Source of the DNA: Blastocatellia bacterium
Lineage (GTDB): Bacteria; Acidobacteriota; Blastocatellia; RBC074
DNA length: 64,000 nt
Reading direction: 5' to 3'
Assembly (NCBI GenBank): GCA_016789725.1
Contig: JAEUQN010000001.1
Location: 78,588 to 142,587, forward strand
In this document: one piece after another, positions 1,159 to 40,785 of the stretch
How the letters are laid out: every line of letters begins with the position of its first letter
Position numbering within the stretch: the stretch's first letter is position 1
Program-made: the position numbers and the translations under genes
The notes under the pieces: model-generated
What the model was told of the DNA's origin: nothing
Database searches by the model: none
Seen by the model: the letters and a program-made list of their open reading frames with translations, nothing else

Positions 1159-1204
1159 TGGGATTGCGGATTTGGGATTACGGCTGATAGCTGATTGAGG
1201 TTTT

Positions 1205-4283: not shown

Positions 4284-4818
4284 ATAATCTATTCCTGAAG
4301 ACTAGCATAGCGCCGCTCATACAAATGGAAGTAATTTTGCTCGTTAGAGGGTGATCCTCATTTGGCTTTATTGGTTTTTTCGGTAACACATTTCATCTTT
4401 CTGTTTGTGTGAGCGCCAAGTGGCTTGCAATACAGAAGAGCGGTTTTATTAGCAGAGGCCCGTTTCCTTAGTATATGAGATAGGAATTCTACTCAGTCCG
4501 CCCCGGCCTGTCTCTAAATCACAATATCGCAGTACCAAACATGGGTTTCCTCCAAGGGTAAGGTCGAGCATGCATCTGGCGGATTTTCACACCAAACATT
4601 TTGTGTATGAATTGACCAGACGCTTTGCCTCCGATAGGGTCGAGAAACTGGCAGGAGCTGCGGCGGTCGCGCAAGTAGATTGGAATCTGCATCAGGTGGG
4701 TACTGCTTTGTTTCGCTTCTCAGTTGCCGCAAGGTAGAAAGTTGATCGAAGAAGTTTCAGATCACCAGGAACAACAGGAACCTCGGATCACACTTAGCAG
4801 GGAAGAGGTTTTTAAGCA

Positions 4819-12224: not shown

Positions 12225-12225
12225 C

Positions 12226-15048: not shown

Positions 15049-15125
15049 GCGATAGATTTTGCCGAAAACAAAGTCTCGGTACTTGTTGATAACTACCGAG
15101 ACTTTGCTAAAAGCGAGTTGAGGAT

Positions 15126-15404
15126 ATGAACAAGCGTACAGCCTTTGACATCGTGGATTGCCTGGGGGAGGAATTGGATTTGATTGCCGATGCCGCCACA
15201 ACCAAATGGAAAGCCTATTTCGCGCGCTGGGCCTACGAGGTTTTGCAGCAATCGCCGAAGAATTACCTGTACCAGAAAGACGGGCAGGAATATGTGAAGG
15301 TGTTCGATAATCACCACATCCCATTCATTGTTCACATGCGCATTGCCGCCATTGGTGATGACCTCGCGGACGCCTGCGGTTGTCGCCGCGAAATTGACGA
15401 ATAA
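15126..15404 (+). CDS. small hypothetical protein (92 aa)
   Basis: GAGG Shine-Dalgarno 6 nt upstream of the ATG. The stop is 6 nt before the MTase start. I recognise no motifs. Confidence 0.4.
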   Translation: MNKRTAFDIVDCLGEELDLIADAATTKWKAYFARWAYEVLQQSPKNYLYQKDGQEYVKVFDNHHIPFIVHMRIAAIGDDLADACGCRREIDE

Positions 15405-15410
15405 GAATTT

Positions 15411-19483: not shown

Positions 19484-22400
19484 TCAACGGTCAAACATCT
19501 CGTCATAGATACTTGCAGGCGCTGCTGCTGCAATTTCAGTGCGCTCCGGTTCCGTTTGCAATGTGCGTTCGATGCTTTCTGCGCGCTCTTGCCGTTCGTC
19601 GGTACGACCTTCCTTGGCGTGTGTGTAGTCGGATTGCTGATCGTCGCGCATCATCATTGCATTGCGTGTTGCGAGAGCTTGATCGGTGGGCAATTCTTGC
19701 TCACGATTTGTCGTAACTTCGGTTCTTTCGGTCGAACGTTCCAAGCCAGGTTCGCGTTCTATTGCCTGATCTACCAACCGATCCAGTTTCTCGAAGCCGC
19801 CATAGTATTTCTCGCGGGCCGTGAGTTCGGAATGCTGAAACGCTTGCAACATCTCGCGCTCCTGGGGCGTCGCTTGTTGCATCGCTTGGGCCGTGAAGTC
19901 GTTGTTGTTGACTTGTTCTCGGCTTTCCGCGATTGCATTATGACGGGCTGTTTCTGCGCGTGTTGCCGCCTCCCGTAAATACTCCCGGCTGCCTTCCGGG
20001 AGATTGAGGGTTGCGAGTTTGTCACTGAACTGCTGACTATTCGCGCGTCCTTCGTAGTGATCTTTGATGAGCGGCACAAGCTCATCTTTTCGCCCTTCCA
20101 ATACTGCTTTGTAGCCTGGTTCCTGAAGGCCACTCTTCCAAGTGTTAGCCCATTCTGTGCGACCGGCAGATGCCGCTTGCTCCTGCCCTTGCGCTTCGGC
20201 CACGCGCGCTACAATTTCTTGCTTGTGACGGTTGAGCGCATCGCGGGCATTCAGCACATCATTTTGATATTCGCGCATTGTCTCCACTTGCTTGAAGACC
20301 TGATGAGCGGTCAGGTCTTTCTCGGCAACGCTCTGGCCGCGCGCTTCTGCATTGTCTTTGCGGCGATGAATCTCATCGGGTATTGTTGCGACCCACGTTT
20401 CTTTGGAAATCTCTCGTGATAAGAATTCTTTGCTTTCCGGGTTCTGGCGAACGGTCACTTGTCCATCTGCCACCATACGCACTTGTGTGACTACCTCGGT
20501 CTTGGGATCGGCTTTTGCCGCTGTTATGGCCTCGGCGTAGGCTTGATAGCTGCGACTATGAATCGCAACGGCTCCATACAGCCGCTCGCCTGCGTCACGG
20601 CGCAGATGTAGCTCCTCGCTGGCCTGCTTGGCGATAAGGTTCACATAGCGCCGCTCGACATCGTTCAGCGTAGGACGACCCTCTTGTTTGCTGATGGCTT
20701 CTTCCAGCCGCTGACTGAGCGTGTCATGGTCACGCGCAGATTGAATTCGGGTGACGACTTCCTGCGCTTGTGGACTCGCTTTCTCCGGCGCATGCACTAA
20801 GGACTCGGCGCGCAGGCTGGTGACTTGTTGGTAGATAAAATCTTTCTCCGTCGGCCTGAGTTGCGCGACATTTTCCCGCAATTGCCAGGACTGTTCCTGG
20901 GGCGTCATCTCGCGTGAGAGTTTGGTGTTGGGGTTCACTAATGCGGCAAACCGATTGAGCTTTCCGATGTCGGGTCGTCCTTCGCGATCACGCTGTAGAT
21001 CAAGCGCCGTGATGATCTTCTGAACTGGCTCCGAGAGTTGTGTTTTCCCCTGCTGCATTCGCTCCACTTCGTTGCGCTTGTCTTGGGCTGTGAGAAGAGT
21101 GTCATGGAGTGCGCGGTGCATCTCCGGCGTGTAGTGCTGGGTGTGTGGGCCAGGGTTGGCCAGCAGCGCGCGTTGCTCGGTCGTAAATTTCCGATGACTG
21201 GTCTCCTCGCCTGCGCGTTGTTTGGCGGCATTGCTGTTGTTGAAGTCGCGGATCTGACGCGCCATCTTCTCTACATCGTCTGCGGTTTTTTGTTGGCGCA
21301 GAGCCTCGACAGCTCGTTGAAAGACGGGTGAGCGATTGCTCTCTCGCACGTAAGCATCCTCGCGCAGAACTTGTTGGGTGTACTGTTCGGTGAAACGCAC
21401 CAAGCTTTGATATTCCGCTTTGATGTCTGCGGGAGAAGCGCCTTTGGCCCGCGCGGTTTCGATGGCTGCCAAGTGGCTCTCATATTCCCGTGCGTTTTGT
21501 TGGGCGCGATAGGCTTCTCTTCCGGGTCTGTCTTCGATTCGGAGCGGGCGTTCGGCTTGCGCGTCGTTGTAGTTGCGCACATATTCGTTGATCTGGCGTT
21601 GTCCTGCCTGAGATGTCTCCCAATGCGGATTGGGCGCAAGTAATAATTCTTTGTCGCGCGGGCTGAGGTATGGATTCATCAACACCCGCTCGGCAAAGAT
21701 CATTTCTCGTTCCGCTGTCATCGGGCGTTCGCCCATTTTCAGCCGATCTGCATACATCTCCCGAAAATGAGTGTGTTCGCCCTCTGGTGCATTGGTACGA
21801 AGCGCGAATTCCTGCGCCCTTGTCGCATAATCTCGTGACGCCTTGTGCGCCCATTCAGGACTTTGGGCGAGTTGTTGCAGTTCGAAGGAATTGAAGCTAT
21901 TGGCCCGCGCTATTTCTTGCACATGTTGGTATTCGCGTGCGCCTTGCGCCTTGAGATGATCAGTCAAATCTAGTGTTTCTTTGTTGCCAACGTAGGCAGA
22001 ATGCTCCAATAAAGTCGCTGTTTCTTTGCGCGACAATCCTGCGTTGAGAATGTCCTGTCCCAAGCGTTCTGCGTCGGCAGGTGAAAGCTGTCCTTGCTGA
22101 TAAGCGTCGTATCGCCCCGCCAAACCTTGTCCGCGCTCGGTGCTGAGAATCCGGGCGACATCCTGTTGCTGATCGAGATAGTGTCCAGCGAAACGTTGGA
22201 CAGTGCGCGCGCCTTCGACTAACTCTCGCGGGCTGATCTGTAAACGCAATGCTTCCGTGATGCTCGGCATGGCGGTTCTGACGAGATATTGGTCGGTAAA
22301 GAGATGTTCATTGCCTGGGAGGCTGGTTTGCTGATCCAAACCGCCAATCCGAATGGCAGAAGTATTGAAAACTGTCCCTTCTCGCACGGCCTCGAAATCC

Positions 22401-23263
22401 TGCTCCTCGTATCGTTCCTCGGCAAGCTCATACTCTGTGACTTCAAATTCGTCAGCGTGACTGACACTGAAGACTTCTCTCTCGTCGTAGATGATCTGGC
22501 GATCTTCGATCTCTATGTCACGGTCGAACTCCGTTCGGTCTTCGGCTTCCAGCCGCACCAGCTCCTGATCCATTGCACCTCGCGCTTCCAAAATGTACTC
22601 GCTGTTGCCGCTGGCCCCGCCTTGTTCCATCAAGTCATCTTTGGAAAACTCTACAGCTTGGAGTTGCGCTGCGATTTCGCCCATTTGCGTTAAGGCTTCG
22701 CGTGTCGCCGTCAAACGCTCCGCATCCGGGCGATACCCGCCGCGCTCGTCGAAATTGATGGGGCGGAGATATTCATTGATGATCTCTAGTTTGTACGTCG
22801 TATCCGCATTGCGCCCCGCGATGGCTTGAATGTGATCGTGAAACTCCCGCGCCATTTCCCGCGTTGGCAAGTGCTGTATCAAATAGGCAAATTCACCTTT
22901 GTGTGGCTCGTCCGTGTTGGGAGTCGTGCGGGTGTGTTCTTCCGTTGGAATGATGGCGACTTCGCGATTGGCCGTGGCCCCAGCTTCATACATTTCCGCT
23001 AACGTGGTGTAGCCGTCGGCGCGTAACTTACTGGCCCATTGCGCCCGATCATAGCCTTCCGGGGGATTGAATACCGTACTTAAGTCGTCACGGTTGACTA
23101 AATGATGTTCCCCCGTCGCACCCGCAGATCGAGCCACAATCTCCACCATTGTGGCTTTTCCGTAGGGGCTTTTGTGTTCGTCCAATAAGTCCTGAACGCG
23201 TTTGTCTTGGTACGTTGCGGAGTCGGGAAGTTGTCGAAATGGATTGTAGCTCTCACTGGCCAT
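19484..23263 (-). CDS. large acidic, repeat-rich hypothetical protein (1259 aa)
   Basis: Long intact ORF with Gln/Glu/Arg/Ala-rich helical repeats. No enzymatic motif recognised. It is convergent with the MTase, leaving only a 20-bp gap. Confidence 0.45.
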   Translation of the reverse strand: MASESYNPFRQLPDSATYQDKRVQDLLDEHKSPYGKATMVEIVARSAGATGEHHLVNRDDLSTVFNPPEGYDRAQWASKLRADGYTTLAEMYEAGATANREVAIIPTEEHTRTTPNTDEPHKGEFAYLIQHLPTREMAREFHDHIQAIAGRNADTTYKLEIINEYLRPINFDERGGYRPDAERLTATREALTQMGEIAAQLQAVEFSKDDLMEQGGASGNSEYILEARGAMDQELVRLEAEDRTEFDRDIEIEDRQIIYDEREVFSVSHADEFEVTEYELAEERYEEQDFEAVREGTVFNTSAIRIGGLDQQTSLPGNEHLFTDQYLVRTAMPSITEALRLQISPRELVEGARTVQRFAGHYLDQQQDVARILSTERGQGLAGRYDAYQQGQLSPADAERLGQDILNAGLSRKETATLLEHSAYVGNKETLDLTDHLKAQGAREYQHVQEIARANSFNSFELQQLAQSPEWAHKASRDYATRAQEFALRTNAPEGEHTHFREMYADRLKMGERPMTAEREMIFAERVLMNPYLSPRDKELLLAPNPHWETSQAGQRQINEYVRNYNDAQAERPLRIEDRPGREAYRAQQNAREYESHLAAIETARAKGASPADIKAEYQSLVRFTEQYTQQVLREDAYVRESNRSPVFQRAVEALRQQKTADDVEKMARQIRDFNNSNAAKQRAGEETSHRKFTTEQRALLANPGPHTQHYTPEMHRALHDTLLTAQDKRNEVERMQQGKTQLSEPVQKIITALDLQRDREGRPDIGKLNRFAALVNPNTKLSREMTPQEQSWQLRENVAQLRPTEKDFIYQQVTSLRAESLVHAPEKASPQAQEVVTRIQSARDHDTLSQRLEEAISKQEGRPTLNDVERRYVNLIAKQASEELHLRRDAGERLYGAVAIHSRSYQAYAEAITAAKADPKTEVVTQVRMVADGQVTVRQNPESKEFLSREISKETWVATIPDEIHRRKDNAEARGQSVAEKDLTAHQVFKQVETMREYQNDVLNARDALNRHKQEIVARVAEAQGQEQAASAGRTEWANTWKSGLQEPGYKAVLEGRKDELVPLIKDHYEGRANSQQFSDKLATLNLPEGSREYLREAATRAETARHNAIAESREQVNNNDFTAQAMQQATPQEREMLQAFQHSELTAREKYYGGFEKLDRLVDQAIEREPGLERSTERTEVTTNREQELPTDQALATRNAMMMRDDQQSDYTHAKEGRTDERQERAESIERTLQTEPERTEIAAAAPASIYDEMFDR

Positions 23264-29339: not shown

Positions 29340-29972
29340 ACAATTCGTCGCACCTTTCTGGAAAAATTCGCCGAGGAGGCAAACTGGAAATATCCTTACT
29401 TGTGGAATGAGCTAGACGATTGTGGCTGCGGCAATTAACGTGCCAGATTATACTTGTATAACTTGTTATCGCCGGAAATTTACCTCACGCAATTGGTTGC
29501 AATGTTTCGGCTTACACGCTGTTTCGGAGAACTTTGCGAATTCCTTCCTGCGCCCACCGCCGAAATACCCCAACCATTCCCAAAGAACGAAGACTTGATG
29601 GCATTGTCAGAGGCACGGACGGAAGCACGGCGAAGAGAAAATCCACAGGGGAGAGGCAAAGACGAAGGGGGCAAAGCTCATTCGGCAGACCGTTCAGGTG
29701 GCTCGATGGAGGAAGAACGCTCAAACGGTGATTGACGGATGAAGGACAGTGCTGGCTGTCAACGCGAGGGTGCTTATGGCTCAAGCCGAATTATCAAAGA
29801 GCGAGATGCAGGGACGATGAGGCGCATTCCACTCTGATTTATTCCTGACGTGACATGGAAGCGGGAAGAAAGAGGGAGGGGTTTACGAAAGGAAAAAGAA
29901 AAGGCGGTGATCCGAAGACAACCGCCGAAAGACAAGGAGTATTGAGATGCGAAGAACACAACGATATGAACC

Positions 29973-29981
29973 GTAAAAACC
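29973..29981 (-). promoter_or_regulatory. GT[AG]AAAACC motif instance 1
   Basis: ccGTAAAAACCaa. It lies between the DUF4326 stop and the mobC-like gene. Confidence 0.3.
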
Positions 29982-29987
29982 AAAGCT

Positions 29988-30353
29988 TCACAGTTTGTCA
30001 GTTTCGAGGAGCCAAAGGATGGCCGCCTTGATGATGTCGCAGTGACAAGGTTGCGGGACACACCAGCAAAAAAGGGAAACGGGGTTGCCGTCTTTGACGA
30101 TGCGCGCGATGCGAAAGAGTTCGTCGTAGGCTGCTTGTCCGTTGAGTCGGTCGCAGGGTTGGTGGTTGAGCGCGCGCCAAAGGTCTTGTCGGAAAAGTTG
30201 GATGGCTTGATCACGATTGCCATCTTTTCCGAGGACAAATGGGTTGCCAAGAGGAGAAGCAGACAGGGCAGACATTTTGCGACCGCAGTAAATGTGTTTG
30301 GGGTTATGAGGATTGGGACGTTGGGATTTGCAGTTGTAGATTGAGATAGTCAT
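29988..30353 (-). CDS. DUF4326 domain protein (121 aa)
   Basis: YCGRKMSALSASPLGNPFVLGKDGNRDQAIQLFRQDLW matches the DUF4326 signature (GNPF...G...R..AI..F). GGAGG lies 4 nt upstream of the ATG. Confidence 0.55.
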   Translation of the reverse strand: MTISIYNCKSQRPNPHNPKHIYCGRKMSALSASPLGNPFVLGKDGNRDQAIQLFRQDLWRALNHQPCDRLNGQAAYDELFRIARIVKDGNPVSLFCWCVPQPCHCDIIKAAILWLLETDKL

Positions 30354-30385
30354 GCAGCCTCCGAAAGAACGTGGGAGTACTGGCA

Positions 30386-30394
30386 GTAAAAACC
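30386..30394 (-). promoter_or_regulatory. GT[AG]AAAACC motif instance 2
   Basis: caGTAAAAACCgg. It is 33 nt upstream of the DUF4326 ATG. Confidence 0.4.
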
Positions 30395-30533
30395 GGAGGC
30401 GTGAGAGGAAAGGCGCTGGGGAATAGCGTGCGGAATGCAGAATAAAGAGTGATGCGGTAACGGGGTGTGATTCTGGATGGGCGATTTTGGATTTTGGATT
30501 CGGGGAATCCGAGCAAGCCGCGAATAACTGCTC

Positions 30534-30568
30534 AAAAAAAGAGGCGACCCAACCGAAGCCGGATCGCC
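30534..30568 (-). terminator. Rho-independent terminator (11-bp stem, UUCG tetraloop, U7 tail), copy A
   Basis: The minus-strand transcript reads GGCGAUCCGGC-UUCG-GUUGGGUCGCC-UCUUUUUUU. It is 57 nt downstream of the PEP-CTERM-like gene. Confidence 0.6.
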
Positions 30569-30624
30569 AGTGAAAGAAAGGAGATTATGAAGCAATGGTC
30601 TACCTTCAGTAAAAAACCGAAGGC

Positions 30625-30894
30625 TTATGGACGGTTCCGTTTCTTGAGCAAGGACGCGATGCCAGCAAGACTGGAGCCTAAGAGGAGAAGGCTTACAGAT
30701 TCAGGAACGTTGGCTTGGGGAAGCTTGGCGAAGAACTCTTGTTGATCCAGGTTTCTGTCCGCCGGGGTAATGAGGCCGACACCAGCGGTGGGCGCGTTGG
30801 AGTAAGCAACGGAGCGGTTGAGCCAGGTGTTGGTGTCAGCTCGAGAGAGAAGTGAAAAGAAGGAGAGCAGAGTGAGAATGGTGAACAGTTTCAT
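30625..30894 (-). CDS. small secreted protein with PEP-CTERM-like C-terminus (89 aa)
   Basis: Signal peptide MKLFTILTLLSFFSLLSRA. C-terminus VPESVSLLLLGSSLAGIASLLKKRNRP, i.e. P-E-x followed by a TM segment and a basic cluster. Confidence 0.4.
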   Translation of the reverse strand: MKLFTILTLLSFFSLLSRADTNTWLNRSVAYSNAPTAGVGLITPADRNLDQQEFFAKLPQANVPESVSLLLLGSSLAGIASLLKKRNRP

Positions 30895-31185
30895 GGGAAT
30901 TACTGGTAAGAAAAAGGGCGGCTGAAAACCAAACAAGGAAAGTTGTTTTGACCTGCTTGACGGCTTCAGTGACTGGATCAGACTGGATCAAGGCTTTGGT
31001 AGAAACGAGATTCGCCCATACCAGCTTGCGCCGCCGGGAAAAGGGGCAAGCTTTCGTAGAAGTCGCGGTTGGGCGCGCCGAGACGCCAAAGGGTTTCGGG
31101 TTCCGCCAGCAAGAAGGTGTCATCGTCAACAGGGAAGGTGTTTTGTGGTTCAACCCAGAGATGGAAGCGATCGGGGGGATGTTGG

Positions 31186-31383
31186 TTAGCGGGCATGCGC
31201 GTCACCCCCGAACAAACGATAGGCGATGTCGGATAATTCAACCGAGACACATTCGCTACAGATGACTTCACCGAAATCGGCGTCAACGAAGTGTTTGCCG
31301 CGCGTGACGAGGTGTTCTTCGCCGCAGTTAGGACAGACGTGGGATTGGTTACTGGTCGGGAAAAATTGAATTGAAACGGACAT
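31186..31383 (-). CDS. small zinc-ribbon protein (65 aa)
   Basis: CPNC..17 aa..CSEC. Confidence 0.35.
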   Translation of the reverse strand: MSVSIQFFPTSNQSHVCPNCGEEHLVTRGKHFVDADFGEVICSECVSVELSDIAYRLFGGDAHAR

Positions 31384-31465
31384 AGTTACTCCTGATGGTG
31401 GATTTGAGATGGCGGATTTTCGAGAGACGAAACCCGAAGCTGTGAAAGACGCTTAGATAGAAACA

Positions 31466-31474
31466 GTAAAAACC
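31466..31474 (-). promoter_or_regulatory. GT[AG]AAAACC motif instance 3
   Basis: caGTAAAAACCgg. It is ~83 nt upstream of the Zn-ribbon gene. Confidence 0.4.
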
Positions 31475-31585
31475 GGAAACGTGATTGGGAGGGGGCTTGC
31501 TTGAGTAGGAAGAGTGACGAGGTTGTGTTTGGCAGGCAAGGTAATGACGTTGCGTGTCAGGTATGAGTCCTTCTGGTTGGAATGC

Positions 31586-32452
31586 TCAATAGTGTTCGTG
31601 GAGGGTGGCTTCGATCAGAGCGAAGTTATCCATCGTCTTCAGGTGCAAGATAGCCTTAATGTGTGCGAAGAAGAATTTGACAGGTTTGCCGGCTTCGAGC
31701 AGCGAACGGGTCAAGTCGAGGGTATCGTCGTGTTTTGCGGGACGGCGAAATGCAACGTGATTCGTCTCGTCGTAGAGCGCAAGCCCGAAGTTCGCACTGG
31801 AACAGGCGGCTTGCTTGGTGGCCACGAAGAAGTCTGCTCCAAATTCCGCTGGCACAGGTACGGTCGTGAAGTTCCCGTGATTGATGAGCGCTCTATCCCC
31901 AACGTGATAGAGCGCCACTTCTGGGTAGCGTTCGTCGGCGATGAAGAGTTGGATGCGCGAACTGAAGCCTGCCTCATCAGTAAGCAGAAAACGGCCTTCC
32001 TGGTTGATGATGGTGGCGAGTGTCATTGCGATTCGCAAGGGAAGTTGGGTGATGGTCGGACTACCAAAACAGAAGACATTCATTGCTTTCGCCTTACGGA
32101 ACAGAACAGCGGCGAAGAAGTCGCCGCGCGTTCCATTGATCCAGATGTCCCAGCCGCGCCGTTGGTATTGTTCGATGAGTGGTGGGAGAGCGTCTTGAGA
32201 AGTGGCGTTGATGTACAAGTGATCGTATCCGGGTTCCAAGTCCCAGGGATGTCCGGCATTGATGTCAAGGTCTTGTTGGATCAGCGCTTCCTCTGAATCT
32301 CCCTTGGTTGCTCTGTGCGAGCGTCTTCGTGCTGGGTGCGGTTTAGAAAATGATGAGTTAGGAATTGGCAACTCCCTCCTGTTCCATGAAGGCTTGCAGT
32401 GGCCTGATGACTTGTGGATTGATGTCGCGCCGCTCGCGGATTTCTTGCGCAA
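31586..32452 (-). CDS. hypothetical protein (start uncertain, probably internal)
   Basis: The C-terminal ~200 aa look protein-like. The N-terminal part of the ORF overlaps the upstream 117-aa gene and looks non-coding. Confidence 0.4.
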   Translation of the reverse strand: MRKKSASGATSIHKSSGHCKPSWNRRELPIPNSSFSKPHPARRRSHRATKGDSEEALIQQDLDINAGHPWDLEPGYDHLYINATSQDALPPLIEQYQRRGWDIWINGTRGDFFAAVLFRKAKAMNVFCFGSPTITQLPLRIAMTLATIINQEGRFLLTDEAGFSSRIQLFIADERYPEVALYHVGDRALINHGNFTTVPVPAEFGADFFVATKQAACSSANFGLALYDETNHVAFRRPAKHDDTLDLTRSLLEAGKPVKFFFAHIKAILHLKTMDNFALIEATLHEHY

Positions 32453-32711
32453 TGATCTTGGTGATTTGCGCTTCGTCAGGTGTTGCGGAGGGAAGCGGGG
32501 CGAAGAACGAATCTGCGATGTCCGGGCGGGACAGTGAGAAATCAGGGAATCGCTCTTGATAAAGAGTGAGCCGTTGCGCTACAAGACTGTATTCGTGCGC
32601 GAGGAATGTATCGCGTTCGTGCTGGGTACGCGTGAAGTGGGACTTGTAGTAAGCGGACTTCAGCGTAAGGAATGCCAGAATCGTAAAGAGATCAGACGGT
32701 TGCAGTTGCAT
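32358..32711 (-). CDS. hypothetical protein (117 aa)
   Basis: Intact ORF. Its start overlaps the GGDEF gene's stop by 20 nt. Confidence 0.4.
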   Translation of the reverse strand: MQLQPSDLFTILAFLTLKSAYYKSHFTRTQHERDTFLAHEYSLVAQRLTLYQERFPDFSLSRPDIADSFFAPLPSATPDEAQITKIIAQEIRERRDINPQVIRPLQAFMEQEGVANS

Positions 32712-33228
32712 AAAGAGACTCCTGCTTACGTTGTTGTTTGCGGAAATACATCGCGTCGTCCGCGTCGCTCAGGGAACAGCCGATACCACCAGAGATGCAA
32801 ACGCCAAGCCGTTGGACTTCCGGGACGTGGGCAATCAATTGATCAAAGCGGATTTCCGCCCTGCGGCGAAACGCCTCGGCGATTTCCTTTGGCACCAAGC
32901 AAACAAATTCGTCGCCGCCCAACCGAAAGACACGACGACAATGAAATTCAGCCGCAGTACAAGCCAGTGATTCCGCGACAGTACGCAACAAGCCATCGCC
33001 CGTTTTGTGTCCGAGCGTGTCATTGACGGCCTTGAATGAGTTCACGTCAAAGAGGACAACGACGAATCCTTCAGCGAAAGCGGCGGGAAAAGCAGCTTCG
33101 AGTGCGCGGCGATTGCCGATTTGGGTCAGAGGATCGGTATAGGCTGCCTGGATGGCGTTCTTGCGGCGCTCGGCCAGTTCAGGGGAAATGAAATCCGCAA
33201 TGCGAGCTCGTGTTTGATCGAGAATCAT
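32692..33228 (-). CDS. standalone GGDEF-domain diguanylate cyclase (~178 aa; start at MILDQTR)
   Basis: RLGGDEFVCLV with an intact GGDEF motif. DVNSFKAVNDTLGHKTGD is present. No sensor domain. Confidence 0.6.
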   Translation of the reverse strand: MILDQTRARIADFISPELAERRKNAIQAAYTDPLTQIGNRRALEAAFPAAFAEGFVVVLFDVNSFKAVNDTLGHKTGDGLLRTVAESLACTAAEFHCRRVFRLGGDEFVCLVPKEIAEAFRRRAEIRFDQLIAHVPEVQRLGVCISGGIGCSLSDADDAMYFRKQQRKQESLYATATV

Positions 33229-33287
33229 GTTGTAACTCTTTCGGCATAGAGAACGAGTTGTTCGGCCGTGGCAGTGGGGTACGGGCG

Positions 33288-33296
33288 GTAAAAACC
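33288..33296 (-). promoter_or_regulatory. GT[AG]AAAACC motif instance 4
   Basis: cgGTAAAAACCgg. It is ~60 nt upstream of the GGDEF start. Confidence 0.4.
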
Positions 33297-33489
33297 GGGC
33301 GCATCGCGCGCAAATCAAATGGCAAAGGGCAGAAAGCAGAAGGGAGACATGGTGTTGTTTGCCTTATTGTGAGGCGGGGATTGCGGAGGGCGGAATGAGG
33401 AAGAATTGTCTGTGAAACAGAAAGGGCGACCGCGTGGGAAAGGGACAGCCGCCCAAGAGGGGGTACGAAATGTTAGATCATTGCTTGTG

Positions 33490-33798
33490 TTAGTTGCGCG
33501 TGAGGTTGGCCGAGAGCCGCGCGATGGCGTCATCGGACATCTCGCTGGCAGCGTTCAAGACGTCGGTGAAGGAGAAGTCGGCTCTGACGTAGGAGGTGGT
33601 AGGTGGCTTGCCGGGATCAGTGACTTGAACGACGGCAAGTCCGAGCCAATAAGGATCAAGAAGGATCACTTCCTCAGAGGGCGTTGTGATGGTTTCGCCT
33701 GCTTGAAACAATCGAACCGAGCAGTGGCTATGACAACGATTCAGTTGGACGGGCAGCCCGGCCAACAGGGCGTGCAGTACGGTCTGCGCTTTGGACAT
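33490..33798 (-). CDS. hypothetical protein (102 aa)
   Basis: Intact ORF co-oriented with its neighbours. Confidence 0.3.
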   Translation of the reverse strand: MSKAQTVLHALLAGLPVQLNRCHSHCSVRLFQAGETITTPSEEVILLDPYWLGLAVVQVTDPGKPPTTSYVRADFSFTDVLNAASEMSDDAIARLSANLTRN

Positions 33799-33840
33799 TG
33801 AAACTCCAGATTGATAGTGGTGGTTGGAAAGGGAAGGGAA

Positions 33841-34152
33841 TTAGCCGACGCGACGTCCGCCGCATGTGTCGGGATGATTGCGGACAACCATACCTTTTGC
33901 CTCAATCCAGGCCTGGGCTTCTTCGTCGGTCAGATTGTTGCCATCGTTGCTTGTCAGCGTCTGGAACAAATTGGTAGCCAGAAAAATTTCGCCGTTGTGA
34001 AGCGTGATGTAGAAGTCCCCTGGAAATTTGGGTGTGGATTCAATGGACGCGACTTGCTGGCGGGTGATTTCCCAACAGTTGCCAGTCGGGGAATAGAGGC
34101 CGACGACCCTGGTTTGCAATGCGAAGCTGATAGGAGGGGGTGAGTTCTGCAT
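33841..34152 (-). CDS. hypothetical protein (103 aa)
   Basis: Intact ORF co-oriented with its neighbours. Confidence 0.35.
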   Translation of the reverse strand: MQNSPPPISFALQTRVVGLYSPTGNCWEITRQQVASIESTPKFPGDFYITLHNGEIFLATNLFQTLTSNDGNNLTDEEAQAWIEAKGMVVRNHPDTCGGRRVG

Positions 34153-34253
34153 ATGAAATTCCTGCGAGAGAATAACGGAAAGTGAACAAAAGAAGAAACC
34201 ACGTTGGATTCTGAATTTAGAGATCTGGAGAAGGCGGTGTCAAAAGCCTTCCG

Positions 34254-34288
34254 AAAAAAAGAGGCGACCCCGCCGAAGCAGGATCGCC
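34254..34288 (-). terminator. Rho-independent terminator, copy B (32/35 nt identical to copy A)
   Basis: The minus-strand transcript reads GGCGAUCCUGC-UUCG-GCGGGGUCGCC-UCUUUUUUU. Confidence 0.6.
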
Positions 34289-35059
34289 GAGAGAAGAACG
34301 CGTGTTTTTTAGGAGAGAGACTTGGGTTCCTGCGCCACGCCAGCGAACCTTGGGCCTGATCACGCTGCCGAACCCCCTGCGGAGACAACCGACTCCGGCT
34401 TGTTCGGTGCGTCTGGTACGCGCGATGGCGCAGGAAGAGGAAGCGCAGAGAGGGGCGGTTTCGGCGCAAAGAAATGTTTCCGAAACGAAATGTCGCCGTG
34501 TGGGAGACGTTGCGCTTTGACAAAGAAGCCACTACGCCGCGCCCATCGTTCCAGCACGACCATCCTTGGGTTGTGTTCTTTGGACAAGTTGGCCTCCATC
34601 GTTGTGGCGTGCCGAGAGGCCGTGGGTGGCCGTCCGGCACGCCGTGCTTGACCGAGCAAACGTGATCGGTCAAGGCCGGGGCACGAGAGCGGGAGTTGGT
34701 GTTGGCTCTCGTTCGGGATAGGGAAGAAAGCACACGGAAACGGTCGGGTTCTGATCGAAGGCTCAGCTTGCGTGGTCGTGCAAGCCAGTCTTGTAGCAAC
34801 AAAGCAACGTCCCCAGTTGATTGTTGCGCCGACCGCTTCCGTCTACGCTCCGCCGTAAGCAGGAGTTAAACTTACAGCAGCGCCGTCAGAGGCAGCGCGG
34901 CTGGCATCGCTTGGAAGACCGCACAAGGCCAGCCGCTTTCGTGGTGGATGTCGTTGAAGGTTGAGAGATGAGTTGCCGTACAGCTTGCCGGAATCCATCT
35001 TGTGTGATTGCTAGTTGGGTTAGAGGCGAATCCAGCCGCCTAGCAATTTCTTATCATCC

Positions 35060-35068
35060 GTAAAAACC
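35060..35068 (-). promoter_or_regulatory. GT[AG]AAAACC motif instance 5
   Basis: ccGTAAAAACCct. It sits at the head of the ORF-less 34.3-35.0 kb segment. Confidence 0.35.
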
Positions 35069-35369
35069 CTACTGGACGGAGATGGTCACGGTGTTGGCGG
35101 GCTTTTCTTGGATGACAATTTCTAGCGGGTAATTTCCCGTCATGACTAGGGAAGTGAGCCTTTTGATTGGGTACGACCCGCGAGAGTGCGTACGACGAAA
35201 ACAATCAGAAACGGGAATGTGAGTAGCGCCACCCCGACGGTGACAAGCACAAGAAAAAGTGCCTGCGCGAGCTGAAGAAGACGATTCATACGAAAAGAAC
35301 AGCCCAGCCAAGGGCGAATCCTGACTGGGCGGTTGTGGTTCCAATGGTTGAAGCGCGAAAGGCTGGGAA

Positions 35370-35777
35370 TTAGCTGCGCGGCACTTTGCCGACAAACTGG
35401 ACGCGGAACGCGTCGAGTCGGTTGGAGTGGTATTCCTGGCCGTCCTGGCCTTCTTTCGTGATGTTGATGGATAAGCGACCATCTTGCACCGCGATCCGGG
35501 AGCCGGGCTTAGCCGCTTGCATCAGCTTGACGACACCCGGATTGCTGGAAACGATTTCGACCCACTGGCCCTTCTCGTTACGTTCGGCTTGTTTGTCATT
35601 CAGCTTTTCGCCTTTGACTGGACGGCGGGTGACGACCCCCAGAAACGCACAGTAACTGTTGCCGTTTTTGTCTTTGCCGAAGTGGATGAGGGATTCTTTG
35701 TTCGTCGGTTGAACGACGGTGACAATTGTGTTGGTGACGTTGAAGGAGGGAAGCGGATTGGTGTTTGCGTTTGCCAT
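35370..35777 (-). CDS. hypothetical OB-fold-like protein (~135 aa; start MANANTNPLP)
   Basis: Protein-like only from the internal Met onward. Adjacent to ssb. OB-fold assignment is tentative. Confidence 0.35.
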   Translation of the reverse strand: MANANTNPLPSFNVTNTIVTVVQPTNKESLIHFGKDKNGNSYCAFLGVVTRRPVKGEKLNDKQAERNEKGQWVEIVSSNPGVVKLMQAAKPGSRIAVQDGRLSINITKEGQDGQEYHSNRLDAFRVQFVGKVPRS

Positions 35778-35859
35778 AGAGAGAGTAGACCTTTCAGTGA
35801 TTTGGTTGTCTTGAAGTGAGGTGAACGCACGCTGCGTTCGGAACAAGGATTTATTCCCT

Positions 35860-35868
35860 GTGAAAACC
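35860..35868 (-). promoter_or_regulatory. GT[AG]AAAACC motif instance 6
   Basis: ctGTGAAAACCac. It is ~85 nt upstream of the 135-aa OB-like gene. Confidence 0.35.
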
Positions 35869-36000
35869 ACGCGCGAAGCGCGCCTTCGGCGTTGGTTGTA
35901 AACGTGCGCAAAACTCTTTTGCAGCAGTGACAGGAATAGAAAAAGCCAGGACGCAGTGAATCCGAATCCTGACTTTTGCGGATGATAGGGAAGGGGGCAC

Positions 36001-36453
36001 CTAGAACGGAATATCCTCTGTATCGTCGGTGCCTTGCAACTCCGGCGCTTGCTCTGTGGCAGGTGCGGCAGTGCTGGTTCCATTGCCGTTTTTGCGGAAC
36101 AGGATTGAGAACTTGGTACCGGTCATGCGAATTTCGTTGTAGACCGTGCCTTCTTTCTCGTTGGCGTTTTCGTACGCATCGGTCGCGTCAATGCGCACCC
36201 GGTCGCCTTTGCCTACGCCGCTCTTGGCGACCGCATTGGCCTGTCCGCCCCAGAAGGTCACGATGCGGACGGAACGACGTTGTTGGTTGCCGCGCACGAC
36301 GTTGCTGATGACTTTCAGGTCAACGACCGCGCGGTCTTCACCGTTGACTTTGACGGTACGAACTTCCGGCGTGACGGCAAGGTTGGCTTCAAAGCTGATC
36401 TGTTGGTAATCGGAGAATTGGCGAGTTGCATTACTGTTGTTGGTTTCTGACAT
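36001..36453 (-). CDS. ssb: single-stranded DNA-binding protein
   Basis: Acidic C-terminal tail ending DDTEDIPF, matching the canonical SSB D-D-D-I-P-F. 150 aa with a Gly/Gln-rich linker. Confidence 0.75.
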   Translation of the reverse strand: MSETNNSNATRQFSDYQQISFEANLAVTPEVRTVKVNGEDRAVVDLKVISNVVRGNQQRRSVRIVTFWGGQANAVAKSGVGKGDRVRIDATDAYENANEKEGTVYNEIRMTGTKFSILFRKNGNGTSTAAPATEQAPELQGTDDTEDIPF

Positions 36454-36577
36454 GGTGGGAAAATCCTTTCAAATGGTTGTGATTGATTCGGGGAAACATA
36501 CAAGGCGGTCTGCACCTGTTATGCCAGTGTCGCTCAAGCGAGGAAGCTTTTTCCTGTCGAGCGATTTTGTATTGCCT

Positions 36578-36586
36578 GTAAAAACC
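36578..36586 (-). promoter_or_regulatory. GT[AG]AAAACC motif instance 7
   Basis: ctGTAAAAACCca. It is ~125 nt upstream of ssb. Confidence 0.4.
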
Positions 36587-36679
36587 CAGAGGCTTTGTGA
36601 GGTGAACTATTGGGAGAAGCTGTGACTTTGGCTTTTGGATTGGGAAGCCATTATGCCGCGACCAACCTCGAATCGAAGC

Positions 36680-37048
36680 TCATTTCACCGCGTACCCCTG
36701 ACGTGCTTGCTGGTACGGACGAATTGCTCTCTGGATCGAATTGAAGACGCGCTCCGAATATCGCTTACGGCGTTCCGTTGCCTTTGTTGCAAACTGCGGA
36801 AAGTCATGCAGGATGTCCGTGATCTGCCCGGCTACCTCTTGCATGCCTGCAAGCTTCAGTATCTGATCGAACCAGAACTGAGGTTTGTACTGATTGACGC
36901 GAACCGTGTGTGCCATCTTGAGCACTGGCTGACTGGCAGCCGTCATGGCAGCTTCCTCTTTGGCGAGAAGTTGATGCAGTTGGTTGAGAACGTAGGCATT
37001 CTCGATGCGATCCTGCCCGGTAACATCCTTGTAACTTGCAGCGTTCAT
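36680..37048 (-). CDS. hypothetical protein (122 aa)
   Basis: Intact ORF with a GT[AG]AAAACC motif 52 nt upstream. Confidence 0.35.
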   Translation of the reverse strand: MNAASYKDVTGQDRIENAYVLNQLHQLLAKEEAAMTAASQPVLKMAHTVRVNQYKPQFWFDQILKLAGMQEVAGQITDILHDFPQFATKATERRKRYSERVFNSIQRAIRPYQQARQGYAVK

Positions 37049-37099
37049 AGCGGTGACTCCTGATCGTGAAATGTTGTTTGAGGCAGTGGGCTATGAACC

Positions 37100-37108
37100 G
37101 TGAAAACC
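37100..37108 (-). promoter_or_regulatory. GT[AG]AAAACC motif instance 8
   Basis: ccGTGAAAACCcg. It is ~52 nt upstream of the 122-aa gene. Confidence 0.4.
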
Positions 37109-37335
37109 CGGCGGCTACGCCGCAACGCAAACGGCAAATCTCAAAATGCAAAAGGGCGGAAGACGGTTTGGGCTTTATTGGGTTTGGGAAATGGGGCGGA
37201 GTGAGGACTTCACGAGATTGGAATAGCAAGCGACAGCGGATTTCGTGTAGGAGCGGGCGGAAAGCGGCTGAACCCTCAGCACATATCGCTTTTCGGGATG
37301 TCCGCTTTCTCTAATTAGCGATGAAGGTCAATGAT

Positions 37336-37668
37336 TCAATCTGCGCGCTTGTCATCATTCCACGCCTGCTCTGCATCCTCGTCGGATTCAAACCGCGCGC
37401 AAGCATCGCATCGTTCGATCACACCGCTTGCCGCACGCAAAACACCGGGTACACCACTGTGCAAGATTTCTTGCGGGTCTTCGCAAAGACAGACAAAGAC
37501 AATCGCAGATTTCGGTTGAACCTCGCCTTGGAGTCTCCATTCAGTGAGGTGTGTTTGCGCGGCGGCTTCGGTCTCGAACTGACGCGCGAAGAAGGGACTG
37601 CTTGTCCACGTTTGGTTGCCGTAGACAAATTCAGTCTCGGAGCCAGTGGTGCGAGTGATGACGTACAT
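37336..37668 (-). CDS. hypothetical protein (110 aa)
   Basis: Intact ORF. Confidence 0.35.
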   Translation of the reverse strand: MYVITRTTGSETEFVYGNQTWTSSPFFARQFETEAAAQTHLTEWRLQGEVQPKSAIVFVCLCEDPQEILHSGVPGVLRAASGVIERCDACARFESDEDAEQAWNDDKRAD

Positions 37669-37683
37669 CCGCTCTTCCTTTCG

Positions 37684-38385
37684 TTATATGGTCTGCAAAA
37701 AGTCACCCGGTTCTTCTTCCGAGAGCGCATCAGCCAGATAGCCCGTTGGGAATTGCGCTTTCAAGTGGGCCGCAACCAAGAGTCGAATGCCTTCTTGGAG
37801 CTGTCGGATTTGCGCTTCGAGTTCGGCGATCTCCGGTGCGATCTCAGCGGCGGCAGCTTGCCACGACGACTGCGCAGCACGACACTCGTTTTGTTGTTCG
37901 GTGATCTGCGCAAGCGCGACAGGAACGTCGTACTGTTCTATCGTGCGGTATTCGTCGGCGAGGATGGCGGCGTATTTGCGAAAGGCTTCGGGCCAAGTGC
38001 TGGCGGAGCGCGCTTCTTCTGCGGCGGCCTCGCGCAACTCGCGCCGACGGCGTTCCTGCGCTTCGTACTGACGGTCTTGCAGGTCGTTTAGTTGTTGGCG
38101 GAGGTCGGTAGCTTCGGCTTGTGCATAGCGCGCGGTATCGTGGAGAGGTTGATAATTTTTACTCATCAGCAGAGCCCTCTTGAAGTTGTTCGTTCGCGGC
38201 ATCCCTTGCACGTTGCGTTTGTAACGTGCGATTTCCTTCGCACCATGAACAGCCCCCATGATTGCGACGGCTTCTATCGTGGCGTTTGGAACCGCGATAG
38301 CGTTTCCGGCGCTCTTTGCCGGAGGCGATGGCTTTGTCGAGTGGCATAAGTTACTCCCAGAGTGAAAAGCAAAGTTTGTCGGCAA
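37684..38385 (-). CDS. coiled-coil hypothetical protein (start uncertain; likely MSKNYQ at 38166)
   Basis: Heptad-like Glu/Arg/Gln/Ala-rich segment. AGAGGG lies 9 nt upstream of the internal Met. Confidence 0.4.
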   Translation of the reverse strand: MPTNFAFHSGSNLCHSTKPSPPAKSAGNAIAVPNATIEAVAIMGAVHGAKEIARYKRNVQGMPRTNNFKRALLMSKNYQPLHDTARYAQAEATDLRQQLNDLQDRQYEAQERRRRELREAAAEEARSASTWPEAFRKYAAILADEYRTIEQYDVPVALAQITEQQNECRAAQSSWQAAAAEIAPEIAELEAQIRQLQEGIRLLVAAHLKAQFPTGYLADALSEEEPGDFLQTI

Positions 38386-38551
38386 CCGCTTCCAGGGCGG
38401 TCTTGAGATTCGTCGCGGCTTCGAACGTGATTCCGTCAGCGATAGTTTCGCGGCGCGTAGTATGGCTGGCGTCTTGCCAGTAGACGTTTAGGAAGTGCGT
38501 CCCGTCAGCGTTTTGATAGATAGCGAATGAGGGTGGTCTTGTATCAGGCAT
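38351..38551 (-). CDS. small hypothetical protein (66 aa)
   Basis: Intact ORF. Confidence 0.3.
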   Translation of the reverse strand: MPDTRPPSFAIYQNADGTHFLNVYWQDASHTTRRETIADGITFEAATNLKTALEAVADKLCFSLWE

Positions 38552-38557
38552 CGGTAA

Positions 38558-39052
38558 TTATCCTTTCTGAAATAGTCCCACTCGCAAGGCGGGGTAGTTG
38601 GCGGCGAAACGCTCAATGCCTCGTTCGTATTCCGCCCAATTTCCTCCGGCGAGGCCACAGCCAATCCCGAATGGCAACGCGACCGACGTGATGCCTTCGA
38701 TCTTGCCCACCAGCATCAACGCATACTTGAATGCGCCCAGCCGATGCCGTGTGTTGTCGGTGTTGCGCGGATCGGGATTTGGCTTGCCCGGCGCAATCTG
38801 CCCGTACAAATTGATGACGGGATCGTGAACGGAAATCCGTGCGTACTGGTCGCGGTGGTTGAGCTTGTCCGTGCGCTCGGTATAGACATTGGCCTGTGGA
38901 TACTTAGCGAAGATGGCTGCCGCCACGCCCTTCGCATACGTCGAAAGGCAATTCGTTTGATGGCAGATGTATTGGAAGCTGTAGTTGTCCACGGCGCGCA
39001 ACAAATCGTCGTGGATGATTTCGAGATTTGACAGTGTGGACTTTGTGGTCAT
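38558..39052 (-). CDS. macro-domain (ADP-ribose binding/processing) protein
   Basis: ICHQTNCLSTYAKGVAAAIFAKYP resembles the macro NAAN...GGGV..AI motif. SVALPFGIGCGLAGGNW resembles the second Gly-rich macro motif. Confidence 0.55.
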   Translation of the reverse strand: MTTKSTLSNLEIIHDDLLRAVDNYSFQYICHQTNCLSTYAKGVAAAIFAKYPQANVYTERTDKLNHRDQYARISVHDPVINLYGQIAPGKPNPDPRNTDNTRHRLGAFKYALMLVGKIEGITSVALPFGIGCGLAGGNWAEYERGIERFAANYPALRVGLFQKG

Positions 39053-39110
39053 AGTGTTTCCTGAATGACAGGCAACAGATTACAAGCAGAATGATCAAGC
39101 ACCATTCCAT

Positions 39111-40763
39111 TTATCGTTCTGACCTCCGCGCTTCAATCAGCTTTCTCTTCAACCCTGTGTGGCGTATCGGCACGCGCTTGATCGCATCAAAGAAGGCTTT
39201 CTTCTGGCCAACGAAGACGACGTGCTTCTCAGCGCGGGTCATCGCCGTGTAGACCAGCGCGCGAATCAACATCCGGCTCATGGAGCTATGAATCGGAATG
39301 ACCACACACGGCCACTGAGAGCCTTGCGATTTGTGGATCGTGATCGCAAACGCATACAGCAATTGATTCCAGGTGTCAGTGGAGTAGTGGACGCGCTTGC
39401 CTTTCTCGAATTTGACTTCCAGCGCATCACCGACAGCGTGCTTCACTTCTCCAACTTCACCATTCATCACACCCAACTTGCGGTTGTTCTTGGTGTGAAT
39501 CACTTTGTCGCCTGTGCGGAAGTTCAACGAGCCAGCAACCGACGTGCCGCCATCCCCGATGCCGCGCAAGATGTCATTCAAGTTGTTTGTTCCTACCGTG
39601 CCTTTCTTCATCGGCACGAGACATTGAATCTGGCTGATCGGATCGTAGCCAAGCCGTTTCGGTAACGATTGGTTGATGATGAGCGGCATCATCTTCGCAA
39701 TCTCCTCGGCAGACTCGATTTCGATGAAGTACGAATCCGATTTCTCCGCGCCCGGTTTCGCAAAGCGAATATCATCATAGCGGCCTTCCCGGATTGCGGC
39801 GGCGTTGCGTGCAACCCAACTCGATTCGTCCTGCCGAAACACTTTCGTGAGTCGAACGATTGCGACCGCTTTGCTTTCAATGAGGTCTTTGAGCACTTGC
39901 CCCGCATCCACCGAGGCCAATTGTTCAGGATCACCGACGATGATGAGCCGGGTGCGCGACGTGCATGCCAGACAAAGCTGCGCCATCATCCACGTGTCCA
40001 CCATTGAGAACTCATCCACGATCAGCACATCGCCAACGACTGGAAAGAGGAAGTTCCAAACGTATTTCTTGACCGCGCCGCAGTAGTACATCAAGCGATG
40101 GAGTGTTTCCGCGGATCGTCCCGTCGCTTCCGCCATGCGCTGGGAAGCGCGCCCTGTCGGTGCGGCGCAATGCACCAACAAGCCTTGCTGCCGAAACAAT
40201 TCGAGGATCGCATTCACCGTCGTCGTCTTGCCTGTGCCCGGATAGCCTGCCAGGATCAAAACGCCTTCGGCTGCCGCCGCGCGTACCGCCTCTTGTTGCT
40301 CGTCGGAAAGTGGTTTGTTGTAGGTGCGAAGAAACGCTTCGACAGTGGCGGCTTCAATCGGTTTGCAATTCCTACCAATGGACTTCAACCGCTCCGCGAT
40401 CATCGTTTCGGTTTGGAAGGTGGCGGGTGTGAAAATGTAGTTGTCCGTGTCTCGCACCAACTCGCCGCGTGCGATCACTTCCTCCAGCGATGCTTGCACG
40501 TCTTCTGGTTTGGCGGCATAGCGGGCGCATAGTTCGGCGACCAGCTTGTCTTGTGGAAAACATGTATGGCCTTCCTTCCGGGCGCGGTCTAAGGCTTCGA
40601 GGAAACGAGTAGTGTGGGGATGAACCGGAAGGGGGGTGCGAAGCAGCGAGTAAAGCTGCAACAGCCGGGCAATGAACGCGACGGCTAAGACTGCTTTCAG
40701 CTTGTGTGGTTGTATCCGAATTCGCATGATAGCAACTCCTGATGAATGACTTTCCACGATCAT
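39111..40763 (-). CDS. RecD-like SF1 DNA helicase (plasmid TraA / Dda-like)
   Basis: Walker A LAGYPGTGKTT. VLIVDEFSMVD. IIVGDPEQLASV. TIHKSQGSQW. YTAMTRAEKHVVFVG. The true start may be Met13 at 40727. Confidence 0.7.
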   Translation of the reverse strand: MIVESHSSGVAIMRIRIQPHKLKAVLAVAFIARLLQLYSLLRTPLPVHPHTTRFLEALDRARKEGHTCFPQDKLVAELCARYAAKPEDVQASLEEVIARGELVRDTDNYIFTPATFQTETMIAERLKSIGRNCKPIEAATVEAFLRTYNKPLSDEQQEAVRAAAAEGVLILAGYPGTGKTTTVNAILELFRQQGLLVHCAAPTGRASQRMAEATGRSAETLHRLMYYCGAVKKYVWNFLFPVVGDVLIVDEFSMVDTWMMAQLCLACTSRTRLIIVGDPEQLASVDAGQVLKDLIESKAVAIVRLTKVFRQDESSWVARNAAAIREGRYDDIRFAKPGAEKSDSYFIEIESAEEIAKMMPLIINQSLPKRLGYDPISQIQCLVPMKKGTVGTNNLNDILRGIGDGGTSVAGSLNFRTGDKVIHTKNNRKLGVMNGEVGEVKHAVGDALEVKFEKGKRVHYSTDTWNQLLYAFAITIHKSQGSQWPCVVIPIHSSMSRMLIRALVYTAMTRAEKHVVFVGQKKAFFDAIKRVPIRHTGLKRKLIEARRSER

Positions 40764-40776
40764 TTTTTTACTGACG

Positions 40777-40785
40777 GTGAAAACC
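40777..40785 (-). promoter_or_regulatory. GT[AG]AAAACC motif instance 9
   Basis: cgGTGAAAACCga. It is 14-50 nt upstream of the RecD-like helicase start. Confidence 0.4.

Follow-up and report, generated by a model that had tools for sequence, protein, structure and literature searches.

A putative structured mRNA leader and a small arginine-rich protein gene in the leading region of an acidobacterial conjugative element

The segment at 34289-35059 of the window, by which we mean the whole stretch of 64,000 nucleotides that was analysed, probably holds a cis-acting structured mRNA leader which, together with the gene of a small Arg-rich protein and a strong terminator, heads a short leading-region operon; we put the probability of this reading at about 0.6. 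The segment had initially been annotated as a candidate noncoding RNA, and of that proposal the structure has held, in the form of two conserved folded domains, whereas its noncoding nature has not, since the domains appear to lie in the leader of an mRNA that also carries a conserved small open reading frame (ORF). The assignment as an mRNA leader follows from the sense-strand bias of the folds, their G.U pairs, the co-oriented motif upstream, the Shine-Dalgarno (SD) site, the ORF and the terminator taken together. According to the proposed mechanism, transcription would begin just after a GGTTTTYAC-N6-TA motif and the leader would act in cis on its own transcript. It would set the timing of small-protein synthesis, possibly via pairing of a conserved UGCCCCGG or of GCCUUC with the SD site, while leader and terminator together would gate the promoter-less genes behind, at 34152-33490 in the window and at 8740-9108 in a related contig, L001. 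Such an element would work like known structured mRNA leaders, and judging from the searches below its sequence and structure family appears to be new and to lie outside Rfam. Unexplained structured leaders are common.

Leading regions decide the survival of a plasmid in the first minutes inside a new host, and to our knowledge their regulation is known mainly from enterobacterial single-stranded DNA promoters and Bacillus plasmid repressors. The layout here is different, with a shared 27-nt motif before the units, strong terminators inside the units, and one unit in which an orphan protein is combined with a large conserved RNA fold. Should this RNA prove regulatory, it would represent a new class of structured RNA linked to the establishment of plasmids, although its rarity, with two lineages in the public data searched, limits the practical value.

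The leading region and its repeated motif

The window represents a conjugative element of acidobacterial type. It carries the genes of a type IV coupling protein (1205-3457), a MobP/MobL-type relaxase (28662-26416, minus strand), a RecD2-like helicase (40763-39111) and two SSB-like proteins (36453-36001 and 35777-35370), and it also encodes a DUF4326 protein and a stand-alone GGDEF protein, the gene of the latter lying 1.3 kb from the segment. Between 29.9 and 40.8 kb every gene is on the minus strand and heads toward the relaxase end, which is the gene layout of a leading (establishment and anti-defence) region. In such regions the genes lie in the orientation needed for transcription from the transferred strand (T-strand), and anti-defence functions are abundant among them (PMC11541004). 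Since the genes point to the relaxase/oriT end, this rule would make the + strand the transferred one. An ORF-free stretch of about 620 nt (~29340-29965) separates the leading genes from the relaxase operon; extended to 29981 it is the likely oriT region, with the last motif copy (29981-29965) pointing into it, and a repeat-finding tool returned no short inverted repeat over ~29340-29981. The window leading region also holds two possible anti-defence genes (31186-31383 and 38558-39052), the candidates being a Zn-ribbon protein with a weak Lar-like match and a protein with a faint DarG-like match, and in L001 a NADAR-domain protein gene at 14457-14891 might likewise serve anti-defence. No tRNA or tmRNA genes were found in the window.

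Homologues of the OB-like protein encoded upstream of the segment led to L001, a 22-kb contig of a Blastocatellia metagenome-assembled genome (MAG) with 66% protein identity and a gene order matching that of the window. Its counterpart of the unit is ~74% identical and keeps the order of motif, domain A, domain B, SD site, small ORF and terminator. An 18-mer taken from the conserved core was used to scan 185,579 species genomes, the JGI metagenomes and IMG/VR, and besides chance hits it recovered only the contig of L001 and two short contigs ~95-99% identical to the window, L035 and L041. Logan contigs identical to the window also exist, and the samples SRR14092386 and SRR14092372 contain identical sequence, whereas the contigs to which the OB-like and GGDEF homologues led were either too short or without the unit. 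These scans of genome, metagenome and viral collections thus leave two independent lineages plus minor variants, and as far as the public data searched have shown, the unit is confined to two lineages of related conjugative elements in Acidobacteriota-like hosts. L035 and L041 are binned to Heliobacteria/Heliomicrobium MAGs, which is probably a mis-binning of the mobile element. Over 34360-34850 the window and L041 are 99.6% identical, and this pair was left out as evidence of constraint, while the divergence of L035 is patchy and may reflect recombination.

The segment itself is ORF-poor, as had been noted, and its GC content of 0.58-0.62 exceeds that of the flanks (about 0.50-0.55). Its ends are also as first described. 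At its head stands a motif copy, GTAAAAACC, at 35060-35068 when read on the + strand, which occurs in 6 exact copies against 0.31 expected, and at its other end a strong terminator; one ORF of 282 aa (33954-34802) does run through this terminator and continues into the next gene. The segment does not, however, lie immediately downstream of the OB-like gene as was originally described, since three features of the minus strand intervene: a terminator (35330-35302), a gene of a 47-aa membrane peptide (35289-35146) that is kept in L001 (6041-6178) and in the further locus L007 (929-1054), and a relic of 24 codons (35143-35069). The relic derives from a deleted gene of a ~344-aa secreted protein and aligns with the C-terminus of the product of L001 6393-7427, with GNYPLEIVIQEKPANTVTISVQ set against GNYTAELVINGKAANTVVIPVQ. 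In the relatives (L001 6041-7427; L007 929-1231) a gene of a 41-47-aa membrane peptide is followed by that of the ~344-aa secreted protein, which has an Acidobacteria-style C-terminus (…NGKAANTVVIPVQ) and of which the window retains the last 24 codons only. L035 has a further deletion of 52 nt in the relic area (35164-35113).

The head of the unit is marked by a promoter- or operator-like motif at 35042-35068 on the minus strand, GGTTTTTAC-n-G-nnn-R-TA-nnnn-A-n-T-G. Its 17-nt core, GGTTTTYAC-N6-TA, has 10 minus-strand copies between 29965 and 40785, against 0.38 expected in the whole window on both strands, and all of them are intergenic and in the same orientation as the genes. In L001 the 9-nt core is found in 11 gene-strand copies at up to one mismatch. 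Alignment of 19 copies gave an extended consensus of ~27 nt, GGTTTTYAC-n-G-nnn-R-TA-nnnn-A-n-T-G, in which the G at +2 and the TA are invariant. This asymmetric motif stands ahead of nearly every leading-region unit, at 29965-40785 (-) of the window and 762-15396 (+) of L001, and its spacing is incompatible with a sigma-70 promoter. It may act as an unusual promoter or, by analogy with the Reg576 sites of p576 (PMC6294495), as an operator; those sites are likewise short conserved motifs repeated upstream of each unit of establishment genes. The likeness to Reg576 concerns the GGTTTTYAC motif and not the RNA, and the sequence here is different, asymmetric and ~27 nt long. The minus strand at 30617-30534 carries a motif variant, GTTTTTTAC, and some 33 nt behind it a near-twin of the terminator of the segment; if the motif is a promoter, this arrangement would yield a small RNA of ~70 nt.

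Folded domains of the leader

From motif to start codon the leader spans ~470 nt. Its variable 5′ part (34858-35041, 184 nt, minus strand) cannot be aligned with L001 and is 95% identical to L041. It contains an ORF of 51 aa (34998-34843, minus) that stops inside the 5′ strand of the P1 stem of the following domain and is not conserved in L001; 5 of the 6 substitutions among the window-type variants fall at third codon positions (p about 0.02, uncorrected), and the ORF may be an upstream ORF or a chance occurrence.

The conserved part of the leader consists of two domains on the minus strand, each identified by folding z-scores, a covariance model and paired changes. Domain A (34722-34857) is predicted to form a three-way junction, into which the sequences of both lineages fold independently. 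The P1 stem of ~23 bp includes a G.G mismatch that is conserved, P2 ends in the GNRA tetraloop GGGA, as G[GGGA]C, and P3 carries an 8-nt loop AMGACCAC. The 10-nt junction CGAUCAGAAC is invariant and a 25-nt core AGCCTTCGATCAGAACCCGACCGTT is 100% identical between the lineages. Domain B (34585-34712) comprises three hairpins and is ordered as hairpin i with the loop CAAYACCAAC, the conserved UGCCCCGG (34683-34676), hairpins ii and iii, the SD site and the start codon. In the window the folding z is -4.25 on the sense strand and -2.18 on the antisense strand for domain A, and -5.41 and -3.33, respectively, for domain B; over both domains and both lineages the sense values range from -4.1 to -5.5 and the antisense values from -1.2 to -3.7. 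G.U pairs occur 11 times in the sense folds and an A.C mismatch once, and the single L041 substitution in hairpin iii changes a G-C pair to G.U.

Covariance models built from the window type recovered domain A at 7657-7791 (73.7 bits) and domain B at 8140-8273 (35.8 bits) of L001, and no further copy of either domain in the window or the other fetched loci. The suggested check for conserved structure on an aligned homologue bore out the initial proposal, in that the helices are kept through double-sided changes in the second lineage. In domain A, 97% of the paired cells are standard and double-sided changes affect 9 pairs, where slid controls gave 0-3; in domain B, 98% are standard and such changes affect 7 pairs, where the controls gave 0-1. 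None of 500 shuffles reached the observed number of double-sided changes. These counts come from alignments fitted to the model in one deep pairwise comparison, window type against L001, and since there are only two independent lineages the covariation rests on that comparison; the compensatory change thus lends good support, short of statistical proof, to both predicted folds. The differences fall at the three codon positions as 13/16/11 and 8/11/11 in the two domains, with no 3-nt periodicity, unlike in the core of the ORF behind them. An antisense ORF that runs over domain A in both lineages was rejected as a candidate, as its identity is limited to the RNA-conserved cores and it has no codon periodicity. 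In L001 some 340 extra nt lie between domains A and B, and therefore the two need not work together.

The fold has no match among known RNA families. Over the whole window Rfam gave 0 matches at the gathering threshold, and L001 likewise gave none; with Rfam 15 at E up to 10 there were only chance-level matches, none above 19 bits where the thresholds lie at 40 to 100, and none of them common to the window and L001. The c-di-GMP riboswitches GEMM-I/II (RF01051, RF01786), of interest with a GGDEF gene nearby, were absent even at E <= 10.

In RNAalifold predictions the conserved UGCCCCGG pairs with the SD site GGAGG, and the minimum free energy folds of domain B of both lineages agree with this. 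The anti-SD helix is invariant between the lineages and so has no support from covariation. Full-length folds give the SD site a pairing probability of at least 0.8, and its partner differs between sequences, in L035 being the conserved GCCUUC of domain A; the SD sites of neighbouring genes are predicted to be paired as often (0.4-1.0), and thermodynamic SD occlusion, being undistinctive against these genes, was dropped as evidence. With an invariant helix, shifting partners and undistinctive SD pairing, control of translation by SD occlusion is a plausible reading of the modelled folds, short of proof.

The small gene, the terminator and the genes behind

The initial annotation had seen no convincing ORF on the minus strand of the segment. 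A small ORF at 34587-34360 contradicts this, as it is preceded by a GGAGG site and is intact in the window type, L035 and L001. It encodes 75 aa from a TTG start on the minus strand, or 79 aa from an ATG at 34599; the start is placed at 34587 because the spacing of the GGAGG (34597-34593), 4-5 nt before the start codon, is conserved between the TTG of the window and the ATG of L001. The start contexts read ...GGAGGCCAAC-TTG-SKEHNPRMVVLERWARRSGFFVKAQRLPHGDISF... in the window and ...GGAGGCCAG-ATG-RDNTRVIVLDRWARRYHICLKAARPPFGEIQIF... in L001. The frame is open at 70-79 aa in the window, L041 (where it is identical to the window), L035 and L001. Within a 27-codon N-terminal core 14 residues are identical between the window and L001, 10 of the 14 via synonymous codons, and the differences are distributed over the codon positions as 9/6/17; a tblastn search of the small ORF against L001 gave 54% over 28 aa. 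The frame stays open in both lineages, an SD site precedes it and there is a synonymous excess, which together give 34587-34360 the sequence marks of a protein-coding gene. Constraint on the protein seems modest to moderate in view of nine amino-acid changes in L035, which include D36C in a G[D/E]I motif.

The N-terminus of the predicted protein is Arg-rich, with the pattern R-x5-RWARR-x5-K-x2-R, and the tail is rich in Pro, Ala and Ser. No homologue was found in a word index of 5.8 billion proteins or in a HMMER scan of 1.84 billion representatives, nor was there a Pfam match at E <= 10. A single-sequence AlphaFold model (pLDDT 68) places a helix on the Arg-rich stretch and a beta-hairpin behind it, and a Foldseek search of the PDB with this model returned nothing below E = 0.4. 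As judged by these searches, the product appears to be an orphan protein of no known family.

The 3′ untranslated region (34289-34359, minus) contributes an arm, UGGCGCAGGAA, that in predicted folds pairs with UUCCUGCGCCA inside the ORF. It is followed by the intrinsic terminator that had been noted at the end of the segment (34254-34288, minus), and the strand transcribed from 34288 to 34254 indeed carries a GC-rich hairpin with a U-tract, as expected of Rho-independent termination: an 11-bp stem with 8 G-C pairs, a UUCG loop and a U7 tail. A 91%-identical copy is present at 30568-30534, and related copies in L001 and L041. Terminators from different units, and from both elements, share GGCGAYC..GCU..CGG..GGUCGCCU-U7 and an upstream pyrimidine tract, with copies at 34254-34288 and 30534-30568 of the window, about 8580-8620 of L001 and 1455-1490 of L041; from their sequences they appear to form a 'family' rather than independent hairpins.

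Behind the terminator lie genes without a motif copy of their own, at 34152-33490 in the window and 8740-9108 in L001, which are unrelated to each other, and for this reason the unit looks like a regulatory head before variable cargo. In the window a sigma-70-like site behind the terminator (34243-34214, 10/12) could drive the downstream genes independently, and in L001 no such site was found behind the terminator. Classical leader-peptide attenuation was discarded, as blocking the ORF plus 12 nt did not abolish the predicted terminator hairpin in either lineage, and an alternative pairing with the terminator was found in neither lineage.

Alternative readings and known systems

Several other explanations were weighed against the cis-acting leader. 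Domain A might be an independent functional RNA, for instance a small RNA released by processing, a scaffold that binds protein or a decoy against defence systems. It is the part most conserved between the lineages, with its identical 25-nt core, it is set apart from domain B by the ~340 nt in L001, and the GNRA tetraloop, three-way junction and invariant loops and junction are features of complex folds; the 23-bp P1 stem would moreover suit RNase III, and leading regions are rich in anti-defence functions (PMC11541004). Still, neither lineage has a promoter motif or a convincing terminator between A and B, no conserved complement to the loops or junction of domain A, and hence no trans target, was found in either element, and a paralogous domain is missing from both the window and L001, all of which makes an independent RNA unlikely. 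Slightly more doubtful is a processive-antitermination cassette like lambda pL-nutL-N or conAn of pLS20, in which the small protein would bind the leader and let RNA polymerase pass the terminators. The order of motif, structured RNA, small basic protein, terminator and motif-less genes, common to both lineages, would fit such a cassette, as would the other terminator inside the neighbouring unit of the OB-like protein and peptide, the conserved R-x5-RWARR-x5-K-x2-R N-terminus modelled as a helix, and the P2 GNRA cap, which resembles boxB; in the lambda N-boxB system boxB is capped by a GNRA-like loop. RNA-plus-protein antiterminators and a 456-nt leader are known from Gram-positive conjugative plasmids (PMC8191782, PMC13401043). 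All of this support is circumstantial, however, and it is offset by the lack of a single-stranded boxA-like element, the CGCUCU hexamer lying inside a stem, by the low-confidence protein model without a fold match, by the sigma-70-like site directly after the terminator of the window, and by the opposite order in the known system, where ConAn1, of 172 aa, precedes its RNA (PMC8191782).

A single-strand promoter or priming structure, which was among the initial suggestions, would require the domains to act as ssDNA on the transferred strand, as an Frpo/ssi-type promoter or an sso-type priming site in the recipient. The leading-region location next to two SSB-like genes agrees with this, as does the presence of Frpo elements upstream of ssb genes in other plasmids (PMC11541004), and when the segment was folded as DNA both strands were better than shuffles (z = -4.2 and -3.0). 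Yet the Frpo reading fails its defining tests: no sigma-70-like -35/-10 hexamer pair is found on either strand within 34289-35059, the predicted DNA folds consist of several short hairpins instead of one long fold-back, and a blastn search of 34200-35400 against the 72,556 plasmids of PLSDB, assumed to include F-like and IncI plasmids, gave no match, as did a search against phages. Furthermore, in both lineages the minus (mRNA-sense) strand folds better, whereas the + strand is the presumed transferred one, and an SD site and a coding ORF stand directly behind the fold, so that action as ssDNA seems very unlikely. Decay, the other early suggestion, is more improbable still. For the segment to be a decayed coding sequence or a functionless selfish remnant one could point to the true deletion relic directly upstream (35143-35069), the additional 52-nt deletion of L035 and the unconserved 184 nt of the 5′ leader. 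That relic is the sole one found and lies just outside the segment; against decay, none of the ORFs of the segment has a match in Pfam or PHROGs, tblastx against L001 gave an extended match only over the small ORF, and the helices are kept by compensatory and the ORF by synonymous change. Finally, a hok/sok-like type I toxin-antitoxin, with an inert folded toxin mRNA, an occluded SD site and an antisense RNA, would account for a long folded mRNA with a small ORF in a leading region and for the strong predicted pairing of the SD, but it is scarcely credible with a basic, Pro-rich protein without a hydrophobic segment, an opposite strand without a sigma-70-like promoter, and SD pairing that is not distinctive among neighbouring genes. 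The cis-acting leader of the small-protein mRNA is therefore the reading that we prefer.

The unit nevertheless shares features with several known systems. Single-stranded DNA promoters of the Frpo/ssi type were reportedly described for leading regions by Masai and Arai in 1997. Those of F and ColIb-P9 (PMC11541004) are, like the element here, highly folded, orientation-specific noncoding sequences among ssb and establishment genes, but they are long fold-backs carrying -35/-10 hexamers, which are missing here along with similarity to known plasmids, and the present fold favours the mRNA-sense strand and is followed by an SD site and an ORF. The type I toxin mRNAs of hok/sok, flm and pnd are also long and folded with a small ORF and occur in plasmid leading regions, whereas here no hydrophobic peptide is encoded and no antisense promoter was found. 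With lambda pL-nutL-N the unit has in common a promoter or promoter-like motif, a leader hairpin with a GNRA-like cap, a small Arg-rich and partly disordered protein, and then terminators before early genes; it differs in having no recognisable boxA/boxB and no N homology, and its RNA is far larger, with two domains of ~130 nt. The conAn system and the 456-nt zipper-attenuator leader of the pLS20 family (PMC8191782, PMC13401043) likewise combine a large structured RNA and a protein at the head of an operon, with a similar leader length and with terminators inside an operon of a conjugative element. Those systems, however, belong to Firmicutes and head the conjugation operon and not the leading region, the 172-aa ConAn1 is encoded upstream of its RNA, and a test for alternative pairing with the terminator came out negative here.

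As the parallel with lambda and conAn rests on gene order and protein composition here, the unit is an antitermination candidate only, and it is quite unlikely that the leader and the small Arg-rich protein make up a novel module in which RNA and protein jointly bring about antitermination (or an RNA-binding protein regulates itself). If they did, the module would, immediately after transfer, activate the cargo genes in the leading regions of acidobacterial conjugative elements and would be a counterpart of lambda N/nut and conAn in a new phylum and plasmid region, for which we know of no such antitermination system, with the GGTTTTYAC-N6-TA motif serving as a dedicated promoter or operator of the early phase.

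Outside the leading region the window also carries a defence-like cargo cluster at 5910-19463, whose members include a 2104-aa DEAD/MrfA-Zn helicase with DUF1822, a DISARM DrmD-like SNF2 helicase (12025-15048) and an Eco57I/MmeI-like methyltransferase (15411-19463). A gene at 19484-23263 on the minus strand, which lies downstream of the relaxase operon, encodes a protein of 1259 aa that has no Pfam, NCBIfam or PDB sequence match.
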